From an uncultured Candidatus Saccharibacteria bacterium (GTDB lineage Bacteria > Patescibacteriota > Minisyncoccia > Phycocordibacterales > SBAW01), in contig CAZTNI010000002.1 in assembly GCA_964615415.1 (NCBI GenBank), positions 190,745-254,744 of the forward strand: a stretch of DNA of 64,000 nt, given 5' to 3'. The notes under the pieces are model-generated. The model was not told the origin of the DNA and ran no database searches. It worked only from the letters and a program-made list of their open reading frames with translations. Of the stretch, positions 1,192-63,466 are shown piece by piece. Position numbers and translations under genes: made by a program. Numbering within the stretch: the stretch's first letter is position 1; each line of letters begins with the position of its first letter.

Positions 1192-1623
1192 ATGAGCGAA
1201 GAGGTGTCTCGGCCTAAGGTAGGCGTGGGTGTGTGGATCTTCAAAGACGGAAAACTGCTCCTCGGTAAGCGTAAAGGCTCCCACGGCGAAGGACTCTATT
1301 CGAGTCCTGGCGGCCACTTAGAATTTGGCGAGACACTTGAAGAGTGTGCTGCCCGAGAGACGAAAGAAGAGACCGGGATGGAGATAGAAAATATTCGCTT
1401 ACTGTGCGTAAGCAATATTCTTGCATGGGAAGGTAAGCACTATGTCGATATAGGCATGGTTGCAGACTGGAAATCTGGCGAGCCAGAGGTGCTTGAGCCG
1501 CAGAAGTGCGAGGGATGGGACTGGTACGACATCGACAATCTCCCTGAACCGCAATTTGAGTCAGTGCAGCACTATAAAGAGTCTCTTAAAACAGGAAAAA
1601 TCTACCACGGCACGATTCGCTAG
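1192..1623 (+). CDS. NUDIX hydrolase
   Basis: Canonical Nudix box GHLEFGETLEECAARETKEETGM, matching GX5EX7REUXEEXGU. 143 aa. Confidence 0.85.
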   Translation: MSEEVSRPKVGVGVWIFKDGKLLLGKRKGSHGEGLYSSPGGHLEFGETLEECAARETKEETGMEIENIRLLCVSNILAWEGKHYVDIGMVADWKSGEPEVLEPQKCEGWDWYDIDNLPEPQFESVQHYKESLKTGKIYHGTIR

Positions 1624-1942: not shown

Positions 1943-4903
1943 ATGAAGGGTGCTTACGATCACAAAAAGATCGAAAAGAAGTGGCAAAAAGTCTGGGAAG
2001 ACACTGCTGCATTTACAGCCTCAAACGACTCTACAAAAGAAAAGCACTACGTCCTCGACATGTTTCCGTATCCTTCTGGAAGCGGGCTCCATGTGGGCCA
2101 TGTTGAGGGGTACACCGCAACCGACATTTACAGTCGCTACAAGCGCATGCGGGGTTATAACGTGCTCCACCCGATGGGTTGGGACGCATTTGGCTTGCCG
2201 GCGGAAAACTATGCTATTAAAACTGGCGTTGCGCCGCAAAAAACGACCGACGATGCTATAGAAAATTTTCGTAAGCAAATTAAGTCGCTCGGACTTTCCT
2301 ACGACTGGTCACGCGAGGTGGGCACGCACACGCCCGAGTACTACAAGTGGACGCAGTGGTTCTTTTTAACACTCTACAAAAACGGCTTTGCGGAAAAGCG
2401 CATGGCAAAGGTGAATTGGTGCCCAAAGGACCAAACCGTGCTTGCAAACGAACAGACGGTTTCCGAAACTGGCGAGAAGGGTGTCTGTGTTCGCTGTGGT
2501 ACTAAGGTGGTACAGAAAGATCTCTCGCAGTGGTTTTTCAAAATCACAGACTTCGCAGACCAGCTTGTTGATGACTTAGACACGGTCGACTGGCCTGAGT
2601 CGACGAAAATCAACCAGCGCAACTGGATCGGGCGCTCTGAAGGCGCGGAGATAGATTTTACTGTTGCCAGTTCGGGAGAAAAGATAAAAGTATTTACAAC
2701 ACGTCCAGATACCATCTTCGGGGCGACGTACATGGTGCTTGCGCCTGAACACTCTCTTGTCACAGCACTTGCTGATCGTTTGCAAAACAAAGACGAGGTG
2801 TTTGCATACGTCGAGGCAGCAAAAAATAAGACTGACCTGGAGCGCCAAGAAGAGAGTAAAGACAAAACAGGCGTTGAACTGAAAGGAGTTAAGGCGGTTA
2901 ATCCTGCCACTAAAGAGGAGATCCCAGTATTTATTGCCGACTACGTGCTCGGTGGCTACGGCACAGGCGCCATTATGGCCGTACCTGCACACGACGAGCG
3001 CGACTTTGCCTTTGCAAAGAAATTTAACTTGCCGATCAAATATGTCGTGCTTCCAAAACGCATTGATGAGCGCAATCCGCATCAGCCGGGAAAAGAGCTG
3101 GTTTTTAGAAAGGTAATATCAGGCATCATCCGCAACCCTAAAACCGGTAAATATTTGGTATTGAACTGGAAGCAGCAGCCATGGACCACATTTGTTGTGG
3201 GCGGTATGGAAGAGGGAGAAACTCCGGAAGAAGCTGCACGCCGAGAAATTGCCGAAGAAACAGGTTATAAAAACTTAAAGCTTGTTCGTGTAATGGGCGG
3301 CCCGACGTATGCGGAATACTACGCTGCCCATAAAGGAGTAAACCGTAACGTGCACAATTGGCTAGTATTGTTTGAGCTTGAGAATGAAGAGAAAGATGAA
3401 CTCTCTGCAGAGGAGGCCGCAATGCACGAACTTGAGTGGGTAGATCTCTCTACCATTACCCGCGACCGCATGGCCCACGCAGAGCTAGACATCATGCTTG
3501 AGCGTATCCAATCTGCAACAAATGATTTGTATACTCGACCAGGTATTTTGATAGATTCAGGGGCGTTTTCAGGCCTCGATTCCGAAGACGCAAAGAAAAA
3601 AATCACTGAAGCAGTGGGTGGAAAGATGGTAAAGACCTATCGCTTGCGCGACTGGCTTATTTCTCGCCAGCGTTACTGGGGTGCTCCTATACCGGTTGTG
3701 TACGACCCTGAAGGGAAGCCACATCCAGTACCGGAGGAACACTTGCCTTGGCTCTTACCAACAGACGTCGACTACCTGCCACACGGCACTTCGCCGCTTG
3801 CAACATCGAAAGAGTTGCTTGAGCGCACGGAAAAGATTTTTGGTAAGGGGTGGAAGCCCGAGGCAGATACTATGGATACATTTGTATGCTCGTCGTGGTA
3901 CTTCTTCCGCTTTGCCGACCCGCACAATAAAGATGCTTTTTCAGGCAGAGAGGCTCTTAAGAAATGGATGCCGGTAGACCTTTACATGGGAGGCGCTGAA
4001 CACACGGTGCTGCACCTTATGTATGCTCGTTTCTTTACCAAAGTGCTGCAAAAGTTAGGGTATATCAATTTTACAGAGCCGTTTACTAAGCTGCGTCACC
4101 AGGGACTTATTTTGGCAGAGGATGGCAGCAAGATGTCGAAGTCGAAGGGTAACGTTATTAACCCTGACGACGTAGTGGATACGTTTGGGGCAGACTCTGT
4201 GCGCATGTACGAGATGTTTATGGGTCCGCTTGAGGCACAAAAACCATGGAGTACATCGAGCATCATGGGCGTACGACGCTTCCTTGAACGCGCGTGGAAG
4301 TACACTACAGAAATATGGTTAGAAAATTATATTAAAGATATTAAAGAAAATCCTCAGAATGCGATTGAATATGAAAAAAATGGCTGGAATCCTAAGTTAG
4401 AGAATGAACTTCAGGCGCTGATTTTGAAAGTGACTAACGACATTGAGAGTTTAAAGTTCAACACAGCGTTGTCGGCTTTAATGATCTATCTCAATCTTGT
4501 TTACGAAGAAACCAAACTTCGAACTTATTCTGGCACAGAAGCGACAATGTCTAAGTCAACACAAATGACTAAAGGTCAGTTAGAAACATTTATAAAACTC
4601 CTTAGTCCTTTCGCCCCCCATATTGCCGCCGAAATGTGGGAAAGTATTGGTAATACCAGTCATGTATGGGCCGAAACTTGGCCAGTTGCCGATGCTTCAA
4701 AACTTGCTTCAGCTATGGTTACTATAGCCGTACAGGTAAACGGCAAAATGCGCGCCACTATTGAAATCCCTGCCGACATGAGCGAAGAAGAGGCTCTAAA
4801 GACAGCTCGTTCGAACGAGCAAGTGGCGAAGTGGATTGGACAAGGGAAGGAAAAAAGGGCAGTATACGTGCCAAGTAAGATCATCAGTTTCGTTGTGGAA
4901 TAG
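1943..4903 (+). CDS. leuS: Leucyl-tRNA synthetase carrying an inserted NUDIX hydrolase domain after the CP1 editing domain
   Basis: HIGH motif HVGHVEGY and KMSKS motif KMSKSKGN. Editing-domain motif TTRPDTIFGATYMVLAPEH. Conserved RLRDWLISRQRYWGAPIP. 986 aa versus about 860 typical. Extra ~140 aa contain a perfect Nudix box GGMEEGETPEEAARREIAEETGY. Confidence 0.95.
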   Translation: MKGAYDHKKIEKKWQKVWEDTAAFTASNDSTKEKHYVLDMFPYPSGSGLHVGHVEGYTATDIYSRYKRMRGYNVLHPMGWDAFGLPAENYAIKTGVAPQKTTDDAIENFRKQIKSLGLSYDWSREVGTHTPEYYKWTQWFFLTLYKNGFAEKRMAKVNWCPKDQTVLANEQTVSETGEKGVCVRCGTKVVQKDLSQWFFKITDFADQLVDDLDTVDWPESTKINQRNWIGRSEGAEIDFTVASSGEKIKVFTTRPDTIFGATYMVLAPEHSLVTALADRLQNKDEVFAYVEAAKNKTDLERQEESKDKTGVELKGVKAVNPATKEEIPVFIADYVLGGYGTGAIMAVPAHDERDFAFAKKFNLPIKYVVLPKRIDERNPHQPGKELVFRKVISGIIRNPKTGKYLVLNWKQQPWTTFVVGGMEEGETPEEAARREIAEETGYKNLKLVRVMGGPTYAEYYAAHKGVNRNVHNWLVLFELENEEKDELSAEEAAMHELEWVDLSTITRDRMAHAELDIMLERIQSATNDLYTRPGILIDSGAFSGLDSEDAKKKITEAVGGKMVKTYRLRDWLISRQRYWGAPIPVVYDPEGKPHPVPEEHLPWLLPTDVDYLPHGTSPLATSKELLERTEKIFGKGWKPEADTMDTFVCSSWYFFRFADPHNKDAFSGREALKKWMPVDLYMGGAEHTVLHLMYARFFTKVLQKLGYINFTEPFTKLRHQGLILAEDGSKMSKSKGNVINPDDVVDTFGADSVRMYEMFMGPLEAQKPWSTSSIMGVRRFLERAWKYTTEIWLENYIKDIKENPQNAIEYEKNGWNPKLENELQALILKVTNDIESLKFNTALSALMIYLNLVYEETKLRTYSGTEATMSKSTQMTKGQLETFIKLLSPFAPHIAAEMWESIGNTSHVWAETWPVADASKLASAMVTIAVQVNGKMRATIEIPADMSEEEALKTARSNEQVAKWIGQGKEKRAVYVPSKIISFVVE

Positions 4904-4963: not shown

Positions 4964-6007
4964 ATGCCACAAACAGCGGACAAAACAGGCTTTAAGCCTA
5001 AAGCAATCGTTAAAAAGCTCCTAACCTCGCTCCCTGAGCGCTCTCGAACCGTTCTCGAGGCTCGCTTCGGTTTGGGGACCTCAGCAGAGCGTGTAACGCT
5101 CGAATCTATTGGTAAGAAGTGGGGTATTACCCGTGAGCGTGTCCGCCAGATCGAAAACCATGCCCTTGCAGCACTTAAGAAGTCTCCTGCGTTTGGCGAG
5201 GCAGAAAGCGCATTCAAAGAGCTTGAACGCATTGTCGACTCTCTTGGTGGCATCGTATGCGAGTCTGACCTCCTTAACTTTATTACGAAGGACCAGAGCA
5301 TGCAGAACCACATTTACTTCCTTTTGGTACTTGGCGATCCGTTCAAATATCGCAAGGAGGATGATGAGGTTGAGCGTTGTTGGTATGTAGACCCAGGACT
5401 TGCAGAGAAGGTTGAAGGTGCACTTAAAAACCTCTACGCAGGCCTTTCAGACGAAGATCTTATTCCAGAAGGTGAGATGATCGATCGTTTCCTGAAAGAA
5501 CTCCAAGACATTAACGACAAGCACCGTAACGACGAAGTCTTGAAGCGTTGGCTTTCTATCTCTAAGAAAATCGGTAAGAATCCGCTTGGCGAGTGGGGTC
5601 ATGCAGTATCTCCGAACGTGAAGACCAAAGGTGTTCGCGACTACGCATACTTGGCAGTAAAGAAACACGGATCGCCGCTCCACTTCCGCGAGGTTGCAAA
5701 ACTTATTGAAAAAATGTTTAACCGTGCTGCACATGTAGCAACCACCCACAACGAGCTTATTAAGGACGAACGCTTTGTACTTGTAGGTCGCGGTATGTAT
5801 GCACTTAAAGAGTGGGGCTATGCTTCAGGCGTTGTGCGCGACGTTATCCGCAACGTGCTTCGCGATAACGGCCCTCTCACAAAAGATCAGATTATTGAAA
5901 AAGTGCTTAAGGAGCGCCACGTAAAACCAGGAACGATTGTCGTAAACCTCCAAAATCAGAAATATTTCAAGCGAGGTAAGGACGGTAAATTTGTCCTCGT
6001 AAAGTAA
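4964..6007 (+). CDS. DNA-binding protein with an N-terminal sigma-70 region-4 HTH and a C-terminal HARE-HTH-like winged helix. Not a complete sigma factor.
   Basis: N-terminus LPERSRTVLEARFGLGTSAERVTLESIGKKWGITRERVRQIENHALAALKK is a textbook sigma-70 region 4.2. No region 2 or 3 motifs. C-terminal DYAYLAVKKHGSPLHFREVAKLIEKMF...FVLVGRGMYALKEW matches the HARE-HTH pattern of RpoE delta. Confidence 0.7.
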   Translation: MPQTADKTGFKPKAIVKKLLTSLPERSRTVLEARFGLGTSAERVTLESIGKKWGITRERVRQIENHALAALKKSPAFGEAESAFKELERIVDSLGGIVCESDLLNFITKDQSMQNHIYFLLVLGDPFKYRKEDDEVERCWYVDPGLAEKVEGALKNLYAGLSDEDLIPEGEMIDRFLKELQDINDKHRNDEVLKRWLSISKKIGKNPLGEWGHAVSPNVKTKGVRDYAYLAVKKHGSPLHFREVAKLIEKMFNRAAHVATTHNELIKDERFVLVGRGMYALKEWGYASGVVRDVIRNVLRDNGPLTKDQIIEKVLKERHVKPGTIVVNLQNQKYFKRGKDGKFVLVK

Positions 6008-6287: not shown

Positions 6288-7721
6288 GTGCTGTATACTA
6301 TAGCACGTATGGCAAGTCACGGAGGAGGCAAGAAAGGCTTCTTTGGAAAAATTTTTAGTACCCTGTCGCATCATGGCGCCCACGAGTTCGGTACGTATCT
6401 TACTAAGTGGGGAGTCGAAACTATTGCGTTTACTCCGCCGCTCTTGTTGCTACTTATTGTATCTGCCTACGCAGTAGACCCTGCGTCTCTGTATGCAGTC
6501 ACCACTGCAATTGCGGCTTTGTCGCCCCTCTGGCTTCCACTCTTTTTGGGACGTTACTTTTGGATCATGTGGATGCACTACATTCGCTTTATATTCCTGT
6601 TTGCTCCTCCTCAACGACAGGTGCTTCTCGAGATTCAGCTTCCTGCAGAGGTAACCAAGTCGCCGCAAGCAATGGAGGTATTTTTGACCGCGCTCCACAA
6701 CTCTTCAGGAGAAGCAACCTTCATTGCTCGTATTTGGAAAGGACAGTTTCGTGCTACATGGTCGCTTGAAATAGCGTGCAACGAGGGACGCATAGGTTTC
6801 TATATCCGCTTACGCGAGTCGCAACGCAACGTCACTGAAGCACGCCTCTATGGCCAATATCCTGAAGCAAAAATTATAGAAGTGGAAGACTATGTCGACC
6901 GCGTCCCGTATAACACTGAAGAATACAACTTATTTGGGACAGAATTTAAAAAAACATCTGAGCCTCAAGCATTACCTATTAAAACCTATCCAGATTTTAA
7001 GTTGGATATGAATACGGACACGCCGGAAATCCAAGTTGATCCTATTACGCACATCCTCGAACTCTTTAATACAGTAGGGCCAGGCGAATTCATGTGGTTG
7101 CAAATCATTATGAAGGCGCGTAAGCAGGATGAATGGTATGGTTTTTATACGAAAGCGAATACATGGGCAGACCCAGCTAAAGCAAAAATAAAAGAGCTTA
7201 TGGCTGGCGCTGCGAAGCGTGCTCAGGATGTCCTGAAACAATCTGAGGTAGTAGAAGGGAAAATGAATGCTCTTCTTACTGATACGGAAAAGAAAACGGT
7301 TGAATCTATTGAAAAACAGCTCAATCGTTTGGTATTTGAATGCGGTATTCGTGCTATCTATGTAGGAAAGAAAGACAAGTTTACCGGTGCTAAAATTCCA
7401 TCACTCGTGAACGTCTTTCATGCAGTACGTACTGCACAACAAGGTATTGGCGTAACTCGTGGCTTGGTGCCGTACAACTATCCATGGCAAGACTATAAAG
7501 AGATTCTTAAAAATCGCGAACGCCGCAAGCAGTTCTTTTTCTATAAGCACCGCGCCTATTTTTATGTGCCGTATGACCAAGTGCCGGTGTTTATGACGCC
7601 AGAAGAACTTGCCACTATTTGGCACTTCCCAAGTTCAGTCGTGAAAACTCCGAGTCTTAATCGTGTTGAGTCTCGTCGCGCGGAAGCTCCAGCTAACCTA
7701 CCACTCGGTCCGCAGCTCTAA
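6288..7721 (+). CDS. Hypothetical membrane protein. Two N-terminal TM helices and a large soluble domain. No family recognised.
   Basis: 477-aa ORF. No Walker or other diagnostic motifs found. A later Met (MASHGG) is a possible alternative start. Confidence 0.6.
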   Translation: MLYTIARMASHGGGKKGFFGKIFSTLSHHGAHEFGTYLTKWGVETIAFTPPLLLLLIVSAYAVDPASLYAVTTAIAALSPLWLPLFLGRYFWIMWMHYIRFIFLFAPPQRQVLLEIQLPAEVTKSPQAMEVFLTALHNSSGEATFIARIWKGQFRATWSLEIACNEGRIGFYIRLRESQRNVTEARLYGQYPEAKIIEVEDYVDRVPYNTEEYNLFGTEFKKTSEPQALPIKTYPDFKLDMNTDTPEIQVDPITHILELFNTVGPGEFMWLQIIMKARKQDEWYGFYTKANTWADPAKAKIKELMAGAAKRAQDVLKQSEVVEGKMNALLTDTEKKTVESIEKQLNRLVFECGIRAIYVGKKDKFTGAKIPSLVNVFHAVRTAQQGIGVTRGLVPYNYPWQDYKEILKNRERRKQFFFYKHRAYFYVPYDQVPVFMTPEELATIWHFPSSVVKTPSLNRVESRRAEAPANLPLGPQL

Positions 7722-8834: not shown

Positions 8835-9905
8835 ATGGCCTGGTTTACATCACGTAAAAAAGGGACAGTGTTTGTAGGACTCTCGGGAGGAGTCGACTCT
8901 GCCGTGTCCGCTGCGCTTTTGCAGCGTGCAGGATATGATGTCACCGGGGTATTTATTAAGATTCAAATACCAGGGTATCCATGTCCCGCGGCAGTTGATC
9001 GTGTGGAGGCTATGCGGGTTGCGGCGCATCTCGATATCCCTTTTATAGAGATTGATTTATCTAAAGAATATACTGAGGGGGTTTTTAAAAATGCTGTCGC
9101 AGAATTTAAAGCTGGTCGCACGCCTAACCCTGACACGCTCTGTAATAAAGAAATCAAATTCGGTGCATTTTACAATTTTGCCATGGAGCAGGGAGCAGAT
9201 TTTGTCGCTACTGGACACTATGCGCGTACTACCAAGGCCCAGTTGTACGAAGGTAAAGATCCAAATAAAGACCAAAGCTACTTTCTTTGGATGGTGCCTC
9301 AAGAACACCTCGCAAAAACAATCTTTCCCGTAGGAGGTCTACGTAAAACAAAAGTGCGTCGTCTTGCTAAAAAATTTGGTCTTCCTAATGCTGTCCGCAA
9401 AGATAGCCAGGGTCTATGCTTCTTGGGCGACATTTCACTTGACGACATGCTTACCAAAGAGGTGTCACCGAAACCTGGCAAAGTGTTTTCCGAAGATGGA
9501 GAGGAGATTGGTGAACATGGAGGTGTTGAGTTTTATACTCTTGGAGAACGGCACGGGTTTACACTCTACACCACAGGTTCTGCCATGCAGCCGCATTTCG
9601 TGATCGGAAAGAATTTAGAAAAAAATACCCTTACGGTTTCCACAAACCGTTTTCCGCGTGGTGCTTCTCATACCACCGTGTTACTACGAGATACGAATTG
9701 GATCGGCGCTATTCCAACCGGAGCACTGCATGCTCGCTATCGGTATCGTCAAAAACTTATTCCGGCACACCTTTCGATCGAAGGAGGTATGACAGTGGTT
9801 ACTTTAACTGAGCCGCACTATATCCCACTCGGACAATCTCTTGTGCTCTATCAAAATGATCGATGTGTAGGGGGTGGCATTGTTGATAAGTCGGAGCCGG
9901 CATAG
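8835..9905 (+). CDS. mnmA: tRNA-specific 2-thiouridylase MnmA
   Basis: PP-loop VGLSGGVDS. Motifs FGAFYNFAMEQGADFVATGHYAR and DQSYFLW. 356 aa. Confidence 0.9.
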   Translation: MAWFTSRKKGTVFVGLSGGVDSAVSAALLQRAGYDVTGVFIKIQIPGYPCPAAVDRVEAMRVAAHLDIPFIEIDLSKEYTEGVFKNAVAEFKAGRTPNPDTLCNKEIKFGAFYNFAMEQGADFVATGHYARTTKAQLYEGKDPNKDQSYFLWMVPQEHLAKTIFPVGGLRKTKVRRLAKKFGLPNAVRKDSQGLCFLGDISLDDMLTKEVSPKPGKVFSEDGEEIGEHGGVEFYTLGERHGFTLYTTGSAMQPHFVIGKNLEKNTLTVSTNRFPRGASHTTVLLRDTNWIGAIPTGALHARYRYRQKLIPAHLSIEGGMTVVTLTEPHYIPLGQSLVLYQNDRCVGGGIVDKSEPA

Positions 9906-10367: not shown

Positions 10368-11204
10368 ATGACAGTACTTGTTGCAAAGGCAGACGGCACA
10401 AACGAACAATTTGACCCACAAAAACTACGTGCTTCGCTGCATCGCGCTGGAGCAGATGGGCAAGCGGCGGAAACTATTGCAAAGGAAGTGGAAGGAGAGT
10501 TGTGGGACGGAATTACTACGGGAGAAATCTATGCTCGTGCGTTTGCTCGTCTGCGAGAACATCGGCGCGGAGTTGCTGCTCGCTACTCACTTAAAAGAGC
10601 GGTACTCGACTTCGGTCCATCGGGGTTTCCTTTCGAATCCTATATTGCTGAACTTTTTAAACAAGAAGGATACGCGGCAAAAGTAGACCAAATTATTGAG
10701 GGAGCCTGTGTCGAACACGAAGTAGATGTCGTACTGACCAAGCCAGGAAAGACTATACTTGTTGAAGCGAAATTTCATAACACCGCTGGGTTTAAAACTG
10801 ACCTTAAGACCGTTTTGTATGTACAGGCTCGTATTGAAGACATTGCGGCGGCGCAACGAGCAAAAGGGGAAGAGGGTATTGTTGAAGGTATGGTGGTCAC
10901 TAATACAAAATTCACTTCAAAAGCGGTTCAATATGCCTCGTGCAAAGGGCTCGGGCTTGTAGGATGGGACCATCCGCACATTGGCACTTTACAAGAACGT
11001 ATTGAGAAGGCGGGGTTATACCCTGTAACTGCTCTTACCTCGCTATCTGCAAGAGAGAAAGCTGCTTTACTTGCGGAACGCATCGTGCTCTGCAATGCAC
11101 TTCCAGATGCTGGCGAGGCGTTGCGGCGAGCGGGTGTTTCGGGGAAAAAAGCCGATACGGTGCTTGAAGAAGTGGGAGCATTGTGTAAACCAGTTACCGA
11201 GTAG
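10368..11204 (+). CDS. ATP-cone domain fused to an Mrr-type PD-(D/E)XK restriction endonuclease domain
   Basis: N-terminal ~85 aa VAKADGTNEQFDPQKLRASLHRAG...ETIAKEVEGEL fits the ATP-cone. Middle: FESYIAELFKQEGY...EHEVDVVLTKPGKTILVEAKFHN...VVTNTKFTSKA fits the Mrr_cat D...ExK core. Confidence 0.75.
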   Translation: MTVLVAKADGTNEQFDPQKLRASLHRAGADGQAAETIAKEVEGELWDGITTGEIYARAFARLREHRRGVAARYSLKRAVLDFGPSGFPFESYIAELFKQEGYAAKVDQIIEGACVEHEVDVVLTKPGKTILVEAKFHNTAGFKTDLKTVLYVQARIEDIAAAQRAKGEEGIVEGMVVTNTKFTSKAVQYASCKGLGLVGWDHPHIGTLQERIEKAGLYPVTALTSLSAREKAALLAERIVLCNALPDAGEALRRAGVSGKKADTVLEEVGALCKPVTE

Positions 11205-12520: not shown

Positions 12521-13381
12521 GTGAGTCTGTACTATAAGCCCAACAGAAAACCAGACTGGAATTACGGTGGCCCAAAATGGCGCCTCTCGCGTTCTAAAAT
12601 CGAGCTTTCTCTCGATTGCCCACGTTGCTTCTATATAGACAACAAACTTGGTGTAGCGCGCCCTCCGGGGTTTCCTTTTAACCTCAACAGCGCCGTAGAC
12701 GCACTCCTTAAAAAGGAGTTCGATATTCATCGCGCTGACGGTTCTACCCACCCCCTTATGCACGCCTACGGTGTAGAGGCTAAGCCATTTGCGCATCCAA
12801 AAATGGAAGTATGGCGCGAAAACTTTAAAGGAGTCGAGGTGGCGCACAAAGGCACAGGGTTTTTGGTATGTGGCGCTGTCGACGACATCTGGGTAAACCC
12901 TAAAGGCGAGTTGATGGTCGTTGACTATAAATCGACCAGTAAAGACGAAAAAATTGATGCGCTCGACCAAGAGTGGCACGACGGCTACAAACGTCAGATG
13001 GAAATTTACCAGTGGCTCTTGCGTCAAAACGGCTTTACTGTGTCTGACACCGGCTACTTTGTGTACGCCAACGCATCTAAGGATAGAGCTGCATTTGATG
13101 CGAAGCTCGAATTTGATGTCACGCTTATTCCACACACGGGAAATGCAGATTGGGTTGAAGGTGCACTTCAAAACATTAAAACAATTCTTGACAGTGCTGA
13201 GGTGCCTGCAAAATCCACCGACTGTGACTTTTGTGCGTACCGCGAGGCTGCAGGGCAAGCGCTAGCGACTGCCACACACAAAACCCCTCCTTCCTCTCAA
13301 CCCATTCCTGCTCCCGTAAAAACACCACGAGGTAAAAAACTCGCGACTCATGAACAAGACCAAACAGGACAGCTTTTCTAA
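12521..13381 (+). CDS. PD-(D/E)XK nuclease, Cas4/RecB-like, with four cysteines
   Basis: N-terminal CPRCFY. Nuclease motifs AVDD...ELMVVDYKST. QxxxY motif QMEIYQWLL. C-terminal CDFC. Orphan: no CRISPR or cas neighbours. Confidence 0.7.
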   Translation: MSLYYKPNRKPDWNYGGPKWRLSRSKIELSLDCPRCFYIDNKLGVARPPGFPFNLNSAVDALLKKEFDIHRADGSTHPLMHAYGVEAKPFAHPKMEVWRENFKGVEVAHKGTGFLVCGAVDDIWVNPKGELMVVDYKSTSKDEKIDALDQEWHDGYKRQMEIYQWLLRQNGFTVSDTGYFVYANASKDRAAFDAKLEFDVTLIPHTGNADWVEGALQNIKTILDSAEVPAKSTDCDFCAYREAAGQALATATHKTPPSSQPIPAPVKTPRGKKLATHEQDQTGQLF

Positions 13382-13634
13382 CAAAGTCTACGCGGTAGTA
13401 GCCACAATTCCTGCAGGGCAGACCATGACCTATAAAGAAGTGGCAAAAGCTGCAGGGAGTCCGCGCGCGTTCCGCGCAGTAGGGAATATTTTAAATAAAA
13501 ATTATAACCCCGCAATTCCGTGTCACCGCGTTGTGCGATCGGATGGAGCAACCGGCGGATACAACCGTGGCGCTCTGCGCAAAAAAGAATTGTTGACAGC
13601 AGAGCGCGAGGGGAGTAGAGTCGCGGTGCAATGA
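13350..13634 (+). CDS. ogt: Methylated-DNA-protein-cysteine methyltransferase (MGMT/Ogt) DNA-binding and active-site domain
   Basis: VYAVVATIPAGQTMTYKEVAKAAGSPRAFRAVGNILNKN...IPCHRVV with the PCHR active-site motif. Short single-domain form. Confidence 0.8.
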   Translation: MNKTKQDSFSNKVYAVVATIPAGQTMTYKEVAKAAGSPRAFRAVGNILNKNYNPAIPCHRVVRSDGATGGYNRGALRKKELLTAEREGSRVAVQ

Positions 13635-59896: not shown

Positions 59897-61282
59897 ATGA
59901 GATCCGAATACAGAAACAGGTGGTTGATTGCAAAGATTGGCATTGGTGTCGGCATGATGGCGGCGATAGGTATTGCCGCGATGACTTTTTGGCTTGGATA
60001 CGAGAATCTCTTTGCACTCTACCCGTTTATACATTATTCGGTCATGCAAGGCATTGGCATCACCGTGGCGGTATCTGCCCTCTCTTTTTTCGTGCTGCGT
60101 ACCTTGTACCGCGCACATTCGAAGATTCTCGCAATCACGCTCGGGCTGTGTGTCGCCGGAGGACTACTTTATATGTGGGCAGATAAGACCTATTCTCCGC
60201 ATTTTGCCATGCCAGCATTTATGCATGTATATCATCCAGGCGGGCACAACCCCGACTTGCCACTCAAAAACGTTTTTGCCTTTATCAAGAACTTCAGAAA
60301 TTTCGAATACGTTGAGGATATCGGTGCCGATCCAAACGATGTGCCGCCGCCTATTGCCCGCGATTGGACCGAAACAGTAAAAATATCGTTCACTGCGCAG
60401 GAGGTAATTGCTGAAGTGGCGAAGGGTATTTATTTCAACTACTGGACATTCAACAAGCAGGTACCGGGGCCGATGCTTCGTGTGCGCGAGGGTGATACGG
60501 TTGAGATGACCATCACCAACCATCCATCGAGCCTCCACTCGCATAACATTGATCTTCACGCGGTCACTGGCCCAGGCGGCGGCTCCACGCTCTCGCACGT
60601 CGAACCGGGCGAGACAAAAACGTTCACATGGAAGGCGCTCCAGCCAGGCCTATACATCTACCACTGCGCAACCCCGAACGTGAGTACACACAACTCCCAC
60701 GGACAGTATGGCCTTATCTTGGTCGAGCCAAAGGAAGGATTACCGCAGGTTGATAAAGAGTTCTACGTAGTGCAAGGAGAGTTGTATACCAAGGGTGCGA
60801 TCGGCAAGAAAGGGCTCACTATATTCGACGGCAACGCACTTTTGGACGGAATACCGAACTATGTGACTTTCAACGGGCGCATTGAAACCGACGGCAACCC
60901 ACGCATGAAAGTGCGGGCTGGCGACAAGGTCCGTATCTTTGTCGGGAACGGCGGCATAAATCTGATTTCTTCATTCCATTCAATCGGCGAGATATTTGAG
61001 ACCGTATACGCTGAAGGAGGCATTGGAGGGCATCCTCTCAAGAATATCCAGACTACGGCTGTTTTGCCCGGCGGCACTTCCATCGTTGAATTTACGGCGG
61101 AAGTGCCCGGCAACATAGTGCTTGTCGACCATGCACTTGCTCGTATGAACAAGGGTGCATGGGCGATTATCGAAGTGGAGGGCGAACCACGGCCGGATAT
61201 CTACGCGCCAGGAAGAGATTTTATAGAATCGTCAACAACAGTAGAGAACTCTGACACGGAAGATGCTCACGTGATGCACTAG
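59897..61282 (+). CDS. nirK: Copper-containing nitrite reductase-like two-domain cupredoxin (NirK family) with an N-terminal ~130-aa membrane extension
   Basis: HSHNIDLHAVTGPGGG (type-2/type-1 Cu His block, compare HNVDFHAATG) and YIYHCATPNVSTHNSHGQYGLILVEP (Cys-His-axial ligand block). The axial position reads Gln instead of Met. Three N-terminal TM helices. Confidence 0.75.
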   Translation: MRSEYRNRWLIAKIGIGVGMMAAIGIAAMTFWLGYENLFALYPFIHYSVMQGIGITVAVSALSFFVLRTLYRAHSKILAITLGLCVAGGLLYMWADKTYSPHFAMPAFMHVYHPGGHNPDLPLKNVFAFIKNFRNFEYVEDIGADPNDVPPPIARDWTETVKISFTAQEVIAEVAKGIYFNYWTFNKQVPGPMLRVREGDTVEMTITNHPSSLHSHNIDLHAVTGPGGGSTLSHVEPGETKTFTWKALQPGLYIYHCATPNVSTHNSHGQYGLILVEPKEGLPQVDKEFYVVQGELYTKGAIGKKGLTIFDGNALLDGIPNYVTFNGRIETDGNPRMKVRAGDKVRIFVGNGGINLISSFHSIGEIFETVYAEGGIGGHPLKNIQTTAVLPGGTSIVEFTAEVPGNIVLVDHALARMNKGAWAIIEVEGEPRPDIYAPGRDFIESSTTVENSDTEDAHVMH

Positions 61283-61748: not shown

Positions 61749-62114
61749 TCATTCGAATGGAATCTGGCAATCCTCAAAGCAGTGGGCTTCGCGGTTGAGT
61801 TTATATACGCGCTCGCGTCCGCGGTCCTCGCTACCAACCGCGTCAACTGAGCGCAGCACGTTTAAATGGTGTGTAACGGTAGGTTGGGTTAGTTTAATTT
61901 GCGCGGTAATTTCTCCCACAGTGAGACCCTCCTTTGCCTTACCAAGCATGCAGACCATATTGTAACGGCTCCTATCACCAACTACCTTAAAACAGTCAGG
62001 ACAGAGTTCTTCTTCGCCGCTTTTAACCCATGAAGGACGTTTATACGTCTTCTCCTCTTTACCGTGTTCGGGTTTCGTTTTCATGTTTGTTGTCCCCAGC
62101 TTTTTCTTATTCAT
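61749..62114 (-). CDS. ArsR/SmtB-family HTH transcriptional regulator with flanking Cys pairs
   Basis: LTQPTVTHHLNVLRSVD fits the ArsR recognition helix. CPDC and CFEDC motifs. Confidence 0.75.
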   Translation of the reverse strand: MNKKKLGTTNMKTKPEHGKEEKTYKRPSWVKSGEEELCPDCFKVVGDRSRYNMVCMLGKAKEGLTVGEITAQIKLTQPTVTHHLNVLRSVDAVGSEDRGRERVYKLNREAHCFEDCQIPFE

Positions 62115-62173: not shown

Positions 62174-63466
62174 ATGCAAAAAACGAAATCCACAGCACTC
62201 ACCACAATCACCAAACGCGATGGCTCACAAGTCACTTTTGACGAAAGCAAAATTGCTGTCGCGGTAGAAAAGGCGATGGAGGCTGTTGGCAATTTTAAGA
62301 AGACCGATGCAGAGAAAATCGCGCATGAAGTAGTTTCAAAACTTGAAGTGGCATATCAGGCAGACCCTTCTTTTGAGGTGACCGTGGAACGCGTGCAGGA
62401 TTTCGTTGAGTTGACTCTCATGGAGAGTGATTATCACGATGTAGCGAAAGCCTACATCCTGTACCGTGACCACCGGGCGCAGATGCGCAAGCGCGATATT
62501 TTTAAAAAGCGCATCAATCTCAAGCCACATGAGTACCCAGAGCTTTTGGAGTATGTGGATGCGATCCGCCACTCCTATTGGATTCATACAGAATTTAATT
62601 TTACGAGCGATATCCAAGATTTTAAAGTACATGTAAATGAGGCAGAGCGAAGCGCAATAACGCACGCGATGCTAGCCATTGCGCAAATAGAGGTTTCGGT
62701 AAAAACATTTTGGGGCGATGTGTATAAAAAAATGCCGAAACCTGAAATCGGCTCAGTCGGCTTTACCTTTGCAGAAAGTGAGGTGAGGCATCAGGACGCC
62801 TACGCCCATTTGCTCGAGATACTGGGCCTCAACCATGAGTTTGAAAAAATAAAAGATATACCGGTCATCATCCAAAGGATCACGTATCTGGAAAAATCGA
62901 TCAAGAATGCCCGGAGCGACGATAACCGCGAGTATGCACAGGCCATACTACTCTTCTCGCTCTTTATCGAGCACGTATCGCTCTTCTCGCAGTTCCTAAT
63001 CATCATGGCATTCAACAAGCACAAAAATCTTTTTAAGGGTATATCCAACGTCATTGAGGCCACTTCCAAGGAGGAGCAAATCCACGGCCTCTTTGGCATA
63101 GACCTTATCAACATTATTAAAAACGAGCACCCTGAGTGGTTCGACGATGCGTACAACGAGTCGATACTTGAGTCATGCAGAGAGGCATACGAGGCAGAGA
63201 GTAAAATCGTCGATTGGATTTTTGAAAAGGGGGAAATCGACTGTATGCCAGCCAAAGTGGTGAAGGAGTTTATTAAAAACAGATTCAACAACTCACTTGA
63301 TTCCATTGGACTCCCCCGAATATTCGATATCGATGAAAAGGAACTGGAGAAGACGGAGTGGTTCGATGACGAGGTTATTGGGACCAAACACGGCGACTTC
63401 TTTGTAAAACGCTCTATCAACTACAACAAGCGAAGCAAAAGCATTACTGAAGACGATCTATTCTAA
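62174..63466 (+). CDS. nrdB: Class I ribonucleotide reductase beta (R2) subunit with an N-terminal ATP-cone
   Basis: N-terminal ITKRDGSQVTFDESKIAVAVEKA fits the ATP-cone. Ferritin-like diiron ligands in FAESEVRHQDAYAHLL (ExxH plus radical Tyr) and SKEEQIHGLF (ExxH). Confidence 0.8.
   Translation: MQKTKSTALTTITKRDGSQVTFDESKIAVAVEKAMEAVGNFKKTDAEKIAHEVVSKLEVAYQADPSFEVTVERVQDFVELTLMESDYHDVAKAYILYRDHRAQMRKRDIFKKRINLKPHEYPELLEYVDAIRHSYWIHTEFNFTSDIQDFKVHVNEAERSAITHAMLAIAQIEVSVKTFWGDVYKKMPKPEIGSVGFTFAESEVRHQDAYAHLLEILGLNHEFEKIKDIPVIIQRITYLEKSIKNARSDDNREYAQAILLFSLFIEHVSLFSQFLIIMAFNKHKNLFKGISNVIEATSKEEQIHGLFGIDLINIIKNEHPEWFDDAYNESILESCREAYEAESKIVDWIFEKGEIDCMPAKVVKEFIKNRFNNSLDSIGLPRIFDIDEKELEKTEWFDDEVIGTKHGDFFVKRSINYNKRSKSITEDDLF

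Follow-up and report, generated by a model that had tools for sequence, protein, structure and literature searches.

An ATP-cone fused to a PD-(D/E)XK nuclease in Patescibacteria, Bacteroidota and archaea: a candidate adenylate-gated nuclease

ATP-cones act as allosteric switches in ribonucleotide reductases (RNRs) and in the regulator NrdR, where the binding of a nucleotide alters oligomeric state or domain packing. They are understood only in these two settings, and a cone with a nuclease as its output would extend the switch to nucleic-acid degradation. Here we examine a gene with this layout in a 64,000-nucleotide stretch (the window) of contig CAZTNI010000002.1, from an uncultured Candidatus Saccharibacteria bacterium. 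The open reading frame (ORF; 10368..11204, + strand, ATG to TAG) encodes 278 amino acids (aa) that comprise an ATP-cone, a PD-(D/E)XK nuclease domain and a helix-hairpin-helix (HhH)-like tail. The closest described protein is AF1548 of Archaeoglobus fulgidus (Protein Data Bank (PDB) entry 1Y88), a structural-genomics protein of predicted function that has been filed with Mrr_cat/COG1787, with a nuclease predicted from residues D38, E51 and K53 (PMC1821046, PMC1874628), and that is placed in Mrr_cat group 50 by Steczkiewicz et al. 2012. Our literature search returned no functional study of any member of the family and, for 1Y88, structure-based predictions. Pfam and NCBI annotation already list this architecture, so the sequence family is not new; its uncharacterised aspect is an ATP-cone driving a nuclease. 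We describe how the proteins are built, how well their active site and cone are preserved, where the family occurs and which genes surround it, and from these we infer nucleotide binding, gating, a substrate and a physiological role.

Architecture and conserved residues of the cone nuclease

The original prediction, made from the DNA letters, was of an ATP-cone fused to an Mrr-type PD-(D/E)XK endonuclease, and both domains exceed the curated Pfam cut-offs. The ATP-cone (PF03477) occupies aa 5-77 (10380..10598, +; E 2.6e-8, 34.7 bits against a gathering threshold of 25.8), an assignment that fold matches and a residue alignment share, and the Mrr_cat domain (PF04471), of the AF1548 type, occupies aa 86-196 (10623..10955, +; E 2.9e-9, 37.5 bits, cut-off 21). 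The HhH-like tail, AF1548-like_C, at aa 218-271 (11019..11180, +) falls below the Pfam threshold in the window protein (18.1 bits against 23.9); in precomputed Pfam annotation many relatives score significantly for it, and a subset of them match HHH_5 as well. It is presumably a binder of the DNA backbone. A sequence search of the PDB found a single relative, 1Y88 (E 3.8e-29, query residues 89-269), with a match that spans the nuclease and the C-terminal domain and not the cone. AlphaFold2 modelling from 64 aligned sequences (mean local confidence, pLDDT, 95; predicted TM-score, pTM, 0.89) gives a four-helix/beta-hairpin cone fold that superposes on NrdR, its closest structural match, and a nuclease domain that superposes on 1Y88. 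The nuclease core of the model also resembles NucS, the restriction endonucleases AspBHI and MspJI, and Can2, Card1 and Cdn1, as well as NucC and Cap4, and its tail is similar to HhH regions in a RAD51 paralog and in Pol X. Because the Pfam domains, the PDB match and the confident model agree, the fusion of cone and nuclease is genuine and no chance match. A nucleotide-gated nuclease appears to be the most sensible reading of the gene.

To describe conservation we counted residues over 141 diverse representatives drawn from 50%-identity clusters. The acidic residue E90 in the first helix of the nuclease core (10635..10637, +), the D120 of the PD-(D/E)XK signature, which lies in H117-E118-x-D120 and corresponds to D38 of 1Y88 (10725..10727, +), and the E133-A-K135 triplet that corresponds to E51 and K53 (10764..10772, +) are each present in 141/141. 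The two motifs on which the nuclease call was originally based can both be located, as D120...E133-A-K135 and as VVTNTKFTSKA at aa 176-186, within which N179 is kept in 140 of the 141 representatives. G83, G86, F89, G112, E118, R155, D158, W200 and P219 are likewise invariant. Judged from its sequence, the PD-(D/E)XK site of the window protein looks intact and active. C114 (10707..10709), H117 (10716..10718), H137 (10776..10778) and C192 (10941..10943) are 89-96% conserved across the family, and these four residues could form a metal or redox site.

The cone is conserved to a similar extent as the nuclease, with a median identity to the window protein of 0.40-0.46 against 0.40-0.50. It keeps K7, G10, E13, F15, K19, T51 and Y55, in alignment with the activity-site (a-site) residues of NrdA, and we take these to be K9, G12, E15, I17, K21, T55 and H59 in the E. 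coli numbering. Across the representatives, K7 is found in 139/141, E13 in 100/141, K19 in 136/141, T51 in 127/141 and Y or H at position 55 in 123/141. At position 8 (10389..10391), the equivalent of NrdA R10, the residue is A in 77, S in 26 and G in 6 of the 141, with neither R nor K among the five commonest residues, so that the canonical K-R pair of ATP-cones is mostly K-[A/S/G] in the nuclease family and the phosphate-clamp Arg is systematically absent. The pocket looks functional, though one phosphate ligand would have been lost family-wide. The residues at position 8 hint at a different ligand or at a residue contributed in trans: the cone could bind ATP/dATP with the missing residue coming from elsewhere, or a nucleotide with fewer phosphates.

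As originally noted, the window carries a second ATP-cone, at aa 11-102 of the RNR small subunit NrdB (62174..63466, +; E 5.9e-23), an N-terminal placement known from Leeuwenhoekiella blandensis NrdB. The two cones share 30% identity over 46 aa, which rules out a recent duplication of the NrdB cone and indicates that the two were recruited independently. Just upstream of nrdB lie genes for an ArsR-type regulator (61749..62114, -) and a multicopper oxidase (59897..61282). The cone peptide DGITTGEI, highly conserved in family members from Patescibacteria and archaea, occurs verbatim in a Clostridia NrdR (locus L009) and in a Saccharibacteria RNR large subunit (locus L010).

Distribution and gene neighbourhoods of the family

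The exact window protein is present on metagenome contigs of up to 294 kb. More than 2000 clusters at 90% identity match it, and the best 120 of these are all full length, 63-78% identical, derived from Patescibacteria, Paceibacterota and Adlerbacteria, and named either 'ATP cone domain-containing protein' or 'restriction endonuclease'. When 1.84 billion representatives of 50%-identity clusters were scanned with HMMER, 1175 clusters matched at E<=1e-3, of which 432 reached E<=1e-30. Nearly all of the top 150 representatives are 265-300 aa long (~280) and align from residues 1-5, and because they share this length and starting point we regard the three-domain layout as the family norm. Archaeal members come from DPANN lineages (Altiarchaeota, Pacearchaeota, Nanoarchaeota, Aenigmatarchaeota), Hadarchaeum and Bathyarchaeia; bacterial members besides Patescibacteria come from Bacteroidales and from the cultured Cyclobacterium marinum, Roseivirga seohaensis, Algoriphagus ratkowskyi and Pontibacter actiniarum, together with one Chlamydiota copy on a Criblamydia plasmid. 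An initial contig scan with single-sequence patterns, used for taxonomic breadth only, had recovered 8 true relatives along with one NrdR and one RNR that have the cone peptide DGITTGEI in common with them. The labels that members carry in databases, 'restriction endonuclease', 'ATPase' and 'Holliday junction resolvase', are probably misleading. Median identity is 0.44-0.51 within Patescibacteria, Bacteroidota and archaea and 0.36-0.42 between them, and, since identity within groups exceeds that between groups, the pattern fits mainly vertical inheritance of this chromosomal family. The original prediction had set its hypothesis against the prospect of a common housekeeping family of known function: the family is indeed common, while a known function is what it does not have.

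A distinct gene context is found outside Patescibacteria. In Cyclobacterium, Fluviicola, Saprospiraceae, a Pontibacter plasmid, a Criblamydia plasmid and many metagenome loci, the nuclease gene is the first of a closely packed operon. Behind it comes a beta-CASP ribonuclease of the metallo-beta-lactamase (MBL) fold, for which NCBIfam gives Cas14 and aCPSF1 as best matches, then a 500-507 aa protein of the archaeal-type thymidine/AMP-phosphorylase family (PRK04350; AMP_phos 489-506 bits, cut-off 535), and then a PRK07199 ribose-phosphate diphosphokinase, an enzyme resembling phosphoribosyl-pyrophosphate (PRPP) synthetase. The genes abut, with overlapping or shared boundaries in the Criblamydia locus. 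The complete four-gene module was found in Cyclobacterium, Fluviicola and the Pontibacter and Criblamydia plasmids (loci L100, L101, L103, L104), and the existing annotation of that Pontibacter actiniarum plasmid shows it as well. Its flanks hold tandem Usp genes, PPK2, a P-type ATPase, phosphoenolpyruvate (PEP) synthase, pyruvate:ferredoxin oxidoreductase (PFOR), an M50-CBS protease and a response-regulator/cyclic-nucleotide (cNMP)/Crp regulator, and on the Criblamydia sequanensis plasmid the module adjoins phosphoketolase, glycogen phosphorylase and acetate kinase. The nuclease is thereby linked in operons, across phyla, to RNA- and nucleotide-catabolic enzymes in a stress-type island. Because the nucleases at these loci are 45-69% identical to each other and the GC content of the loci ranges from 31 to 48%, the linkage goes beyond recent common ancestry. 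The function of the four-gene module appears to be undescribed so far.

A related operon has been studied in Bradyrhizobium diazoefficiens, where bll3117-3115, encoding a thymidine-phosphorylase-like (TP) protein, a PRPP-synthetase-like (PRS) protein and an MBL protein, is induced by microoxia at the RNA and protein levels and, like the phosphoketolase-acetate kinase pair, is directly controlled by FixK2, a regulator of the FNR/CRP type (PMC6515984, PMC9104804). These are the same three gene families that stand behind the ATP-cone nuclease gene in Bacteroidota and Chlamydiota, but no ATP-cone nuclease is given as a member of the operon in PMC6515984 and PMC9104804, and no search of Bradyrhizobium for one was made.

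One archaeal copy of the nuclease gene directly follows nrdD-nrdG. This position, the resemblance of the cone to NrdR, its nearest structural neighbour, and the place of the gene at the head of a salvage-type operon in Bacteroidota would all suit an NrdR-like regulator, one that binds DNA in a nucleotide-dependent manner, for example at nrd or salvage genes, and uses the nuclease fold and HhH tail for binding only. We hold such a function to be highly improbable, as all four catalytic residues are invariant in the 141 members, which would be unexpected for a pure binder, Pfam finds no Zn-ribbon or helix-turn-helix (HTH) domain in the protein, and the nrd adjacency was seen once.

In the window itself the nuclease gene belongs to a tight array of genes on the same strand, in the order sigma70-r4/HARE-HTH, DUF8128, YceG, MnmA, a small ORF and the ATP-cone nuclease, followed by DUF7282, MgtC, a Cas4-like PDDEXK_1 nuclease, a minimal Ogt and a pilin-like protein. 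It begins 11 nt after the upstream ORF and ends 42 nt before the next, and given these gaps is probably polycistronic; a promoter and terminator scan around the gene returned sites no more frequent than in shuffled sequence. We analysed 73 loci, taken from 80 metagenome loci and a set assembled before, by calling their ORFs and clustering these all against all. The most frequent neighbour was mnmA (8835..9905, +, in the window), found at -1 or -2 of the nuclease gene in 41/73 loci, a linkage that persists among loci whose nucleases share 41-66% identity with the window protein. DUF8128 and PDDEXK_1 neighbours were each present in 27/73 loci, YceG in 25/73, uracil-DNA glycosylase (UDG) and DUF7282 each in 19/73, MgtC in 15/73 and Ogt in 13/73. 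The gene order of the window is kept in Patescibacteria relatives 66-68% identical, which add NUDIX and UDG genes downstream, and a housekeeping synteny extends across relatives 44-78% identical.

Downstream of the nuclease gene in Patescibacteria are found a YfbR-like HD-domain 5'-deoxynucleotidase (the +1 gene in two loci), NUDIX, UDG, Ogt and the Cas4-like nuclease. Because repair genes adjoin it in Patescibacteria, the DNA-damage effector that the original prediction offered as an alternative stays a live rival. In this form, the main rival to the reading that we prefer, the protein would be a DNA-repair or structure-specific endonuclease whose cone tunes its activity to dATP/ATP, cutting for example when dNTPs for repair are available. 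The layout of a nuclease followed by an HhH tail resembles that of XPF, Mus81 and Hef, and the nuclease core resembles NucS, but no match to the ERCC4 or NucS families is present at the sequence level. DUF7282 and MgtC moreover lie between the nuclease gene and its repair neighbours, whose presence may be due to a synteny frozen in a single phylum, whereas the partners in Bacteroidota and Chlamydiota are catabolic and salvage enzymes and include no repair genes. We consider this role unlikely.

The same survey bears on the phage-defence role that was first put forward, in which a Type IV or Mrr-like effector would cut DNA once infection perturbs the ATP/dNTP pool. The protein does carry Mrr_cat, and its nuclease core is like those of the modification-dependent restriction endonucleases AspBHI and MspJI and of the ligand-gated defence nucleases Can2, Card1, Cdn1, NucC and Cap4. 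A single defence-like neighbourhood was seen, in a Patescibacteria-like locus (L105:8863-11512) with an N6/N4 methyltransferase and a weak DndB-like gene ~2 kb downstream, but no methyltransferase or defence gene recurs as a neighbour in the 73 loci. Pfam finds no Mrr_N domain in the window protein, and its PADLOC matches are weak and confined to nuclease domains, the best being the ZorD nuclease domain at 19.6 bits, with Csx1 and CARF_PDDEXK at E 0.005-0.016. PADLOC-DB v2, run on the window neighbours and the operon partners, gave no significant match except to the solitary Cas4-like nuclease. The window protein matched 0/50,697 phage records, and full-length copies were found on 2/72,556 plasmids only; to this are added the housekeeping synteny across relatives, the very high sequence conservation and the retention of the gene in reduced genomes. 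With no significant PADLOC match to the protein, a housekeeping context, no match in the phage records and almost no copies on plasmids, we reject defence as the main role and give it a slim chance overall.

Several features of the surrounding DNA are worth recording. The Cas4-like PDDEXK_1 nuclease (12521..13381, +) and the minimal Ogt (13350..13634, +), which recur downstream in Patescibacteria, overlap by 32 nt; the former matches PADLOC Cas4 at E 3.9e-11 and stands without a CRISPR context, and the latter, of 94 aa, consists of a DNA_binding_1 domain only, with its PCHR motif intact. Upstream, a 347-aa protein (4964..6007, +) combines sigma-70 region 4 with HARE-HTH and is followed by the DUF8128 protein (6288..7721, +), both genes belonging to the Patescibacteria synteny block upstream of the nuclease gene. 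Further upstream, a leucyl-tRNA synthetase (LeuRS; 986 aa, 1943..4903, +) has a NUDIX domain inserted at aa 389-512, right after the editing domain (E 5.6e-17), an architecture shared by the syntenic relatives L013 and L015, and a separate NUDIX gene lies at 1192..1623.

Proposed role in nucleic-acid turnover

The best reading of these data is, in our view, an adenylate-gated nuclease that serves nucleic-acid turnover and nucleotide economy, to which we would assign a probability of roughly 0.45. The cone would bind an adenine nucleotide, ATP or dATP or possibly, because the second basic residue of the cone is missing, one of lower phosphate number. As with the cones of RNRs and NrdR, binding would change how subunits associate or how domains pack, and the nuclease would thereby be activated or silenced, such that cleavage of the cell's own or of imported nucleic acid would depend on adenylate or dNTP status. 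The role would then be one of salvage and recycling under energy or nucleotide limitation, and not of restriction.

A number of observations weigh against this proposal. With the clamp Arg missing, binding of ATP/dATP by the cone would not be assured, and the signals as to substrate seem to conflict, the HhH tail suggesting duplex DNA and the beta-CASP partner being RNase-like. The neighbours in Patescibacteria suggest DNA repair and dNTP sanitation instead, and the mnmA synteny may be a frozen gene order in that group. Searched for by tblastn, the beta-CASP, TP-like and PRS-like partners turned up neither in the 64-kb window nor in any of the Patescibacteria loci studied, so that the salvage link for the window gene rests on homologues 42-47% identical. 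Other archaeal copies lie among unrelated housekeeping genes, in contexts that are mostly uninformative, and the biochemical function of family members is a predicted one.

A more far-reaching version of the adenylate-gated nuclease, which we regard as possible though doubtful, would make the protein the adenylate-sensing gatekeeper of an undescribed module leading from nucleic acid to central metabolism. Such a module would run from the endonuclease to the beta-CASP exo/endoribonuclease, on to a nucleoside monophosphate (NMP) phosphorylase of the AMP/thymidine family and finally to the PRPP-synthetase-like enzyme, and would be for bacteria what the pentose-bisphosphate/AMP-phosphorylase pathway is for archaea; it would be turned on under hypoxia or energy limitation. 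The second phosphate-binding Arg being lost, the cone of a gatekeeper might sense AMP/ADP instead of ATP/dATP. Ultra-small Patescibacteria and DPANN cells depend on nucleotide salvage, and the stand-alone copy in these lineages would on the gatekeeper proposal be a core regulator of nucleotide economy.

The family is large and strongly conserved and is kept in the smallest known genomes, those of Patescibacteria and DPANN, while its cultivable carriers among the Bacteroidota (Cyclobacterium, Algoriphagus, Roseivirga, Pontibacter) make it experimentally accessible. If the operon link holds, it would describe a regulated path from RNA/DNA to bases and pentose phosphates at low oxygen or energy, and would bear on dormancy and on nucleotide handling by symbiotic ultra-small cells.

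Comparison with known systems

Set beside its nearest relatives, the window protein combines parts that are otherwise found apart. The 1Y88 chain (199 aa) is without an ATP-cone, and the alignment to the window protein begins at 1Y88 residue 19. The cones of NrdR and of the reductases (NrdA, NrdD, Leeuwenhoekiella NrdB) have a reductase or a Zn-ribbon as their output, where that of the window protein has a nuclease; NrdR carries its Zn-ribbon before the cone, whereas the cone of the window protein starts at residue 5 without a Cys4 ribbon. Can2, Card1, Cdn1, NucC and Cap4 are governed by a CARF or SAVED sensor in place of an ATP-cone, and only their nuclease half aligns; unlike these nucleases of CRISPR and cyclic-oligonucleotide (CBASS) immunity, the window family has a non-defence context without cyclase or CRISPR neighbours. 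E. coli Mrr shares the Mrr_cat domain family, but this modification-dependent Type IV enzyme has an N-terminal winged-helix Mrr_N, by which modified DNA is recognised, where the window protein has an ATP-cone and HhH tail, and the conserved housekeeping synteny described here is not that of a mobile defence locus. XPF, Mus81 and Hef pair ERCC4 with (HhH)2, and the window protein, which has no ERCC4 match in Pfam, shares with them the general layout of a nuclease plus HhH. NA-iREase1 is an inactivated relative, whereas the active site of the window protein is, as far as sequence can tell, intact. The window protein is not a Type IV Mrr, not an NrdR and not a CARF/SAVED effector; it belongs both to the ATP-cone family and to the AF1548/COG1787 branch of Mrr_cat.
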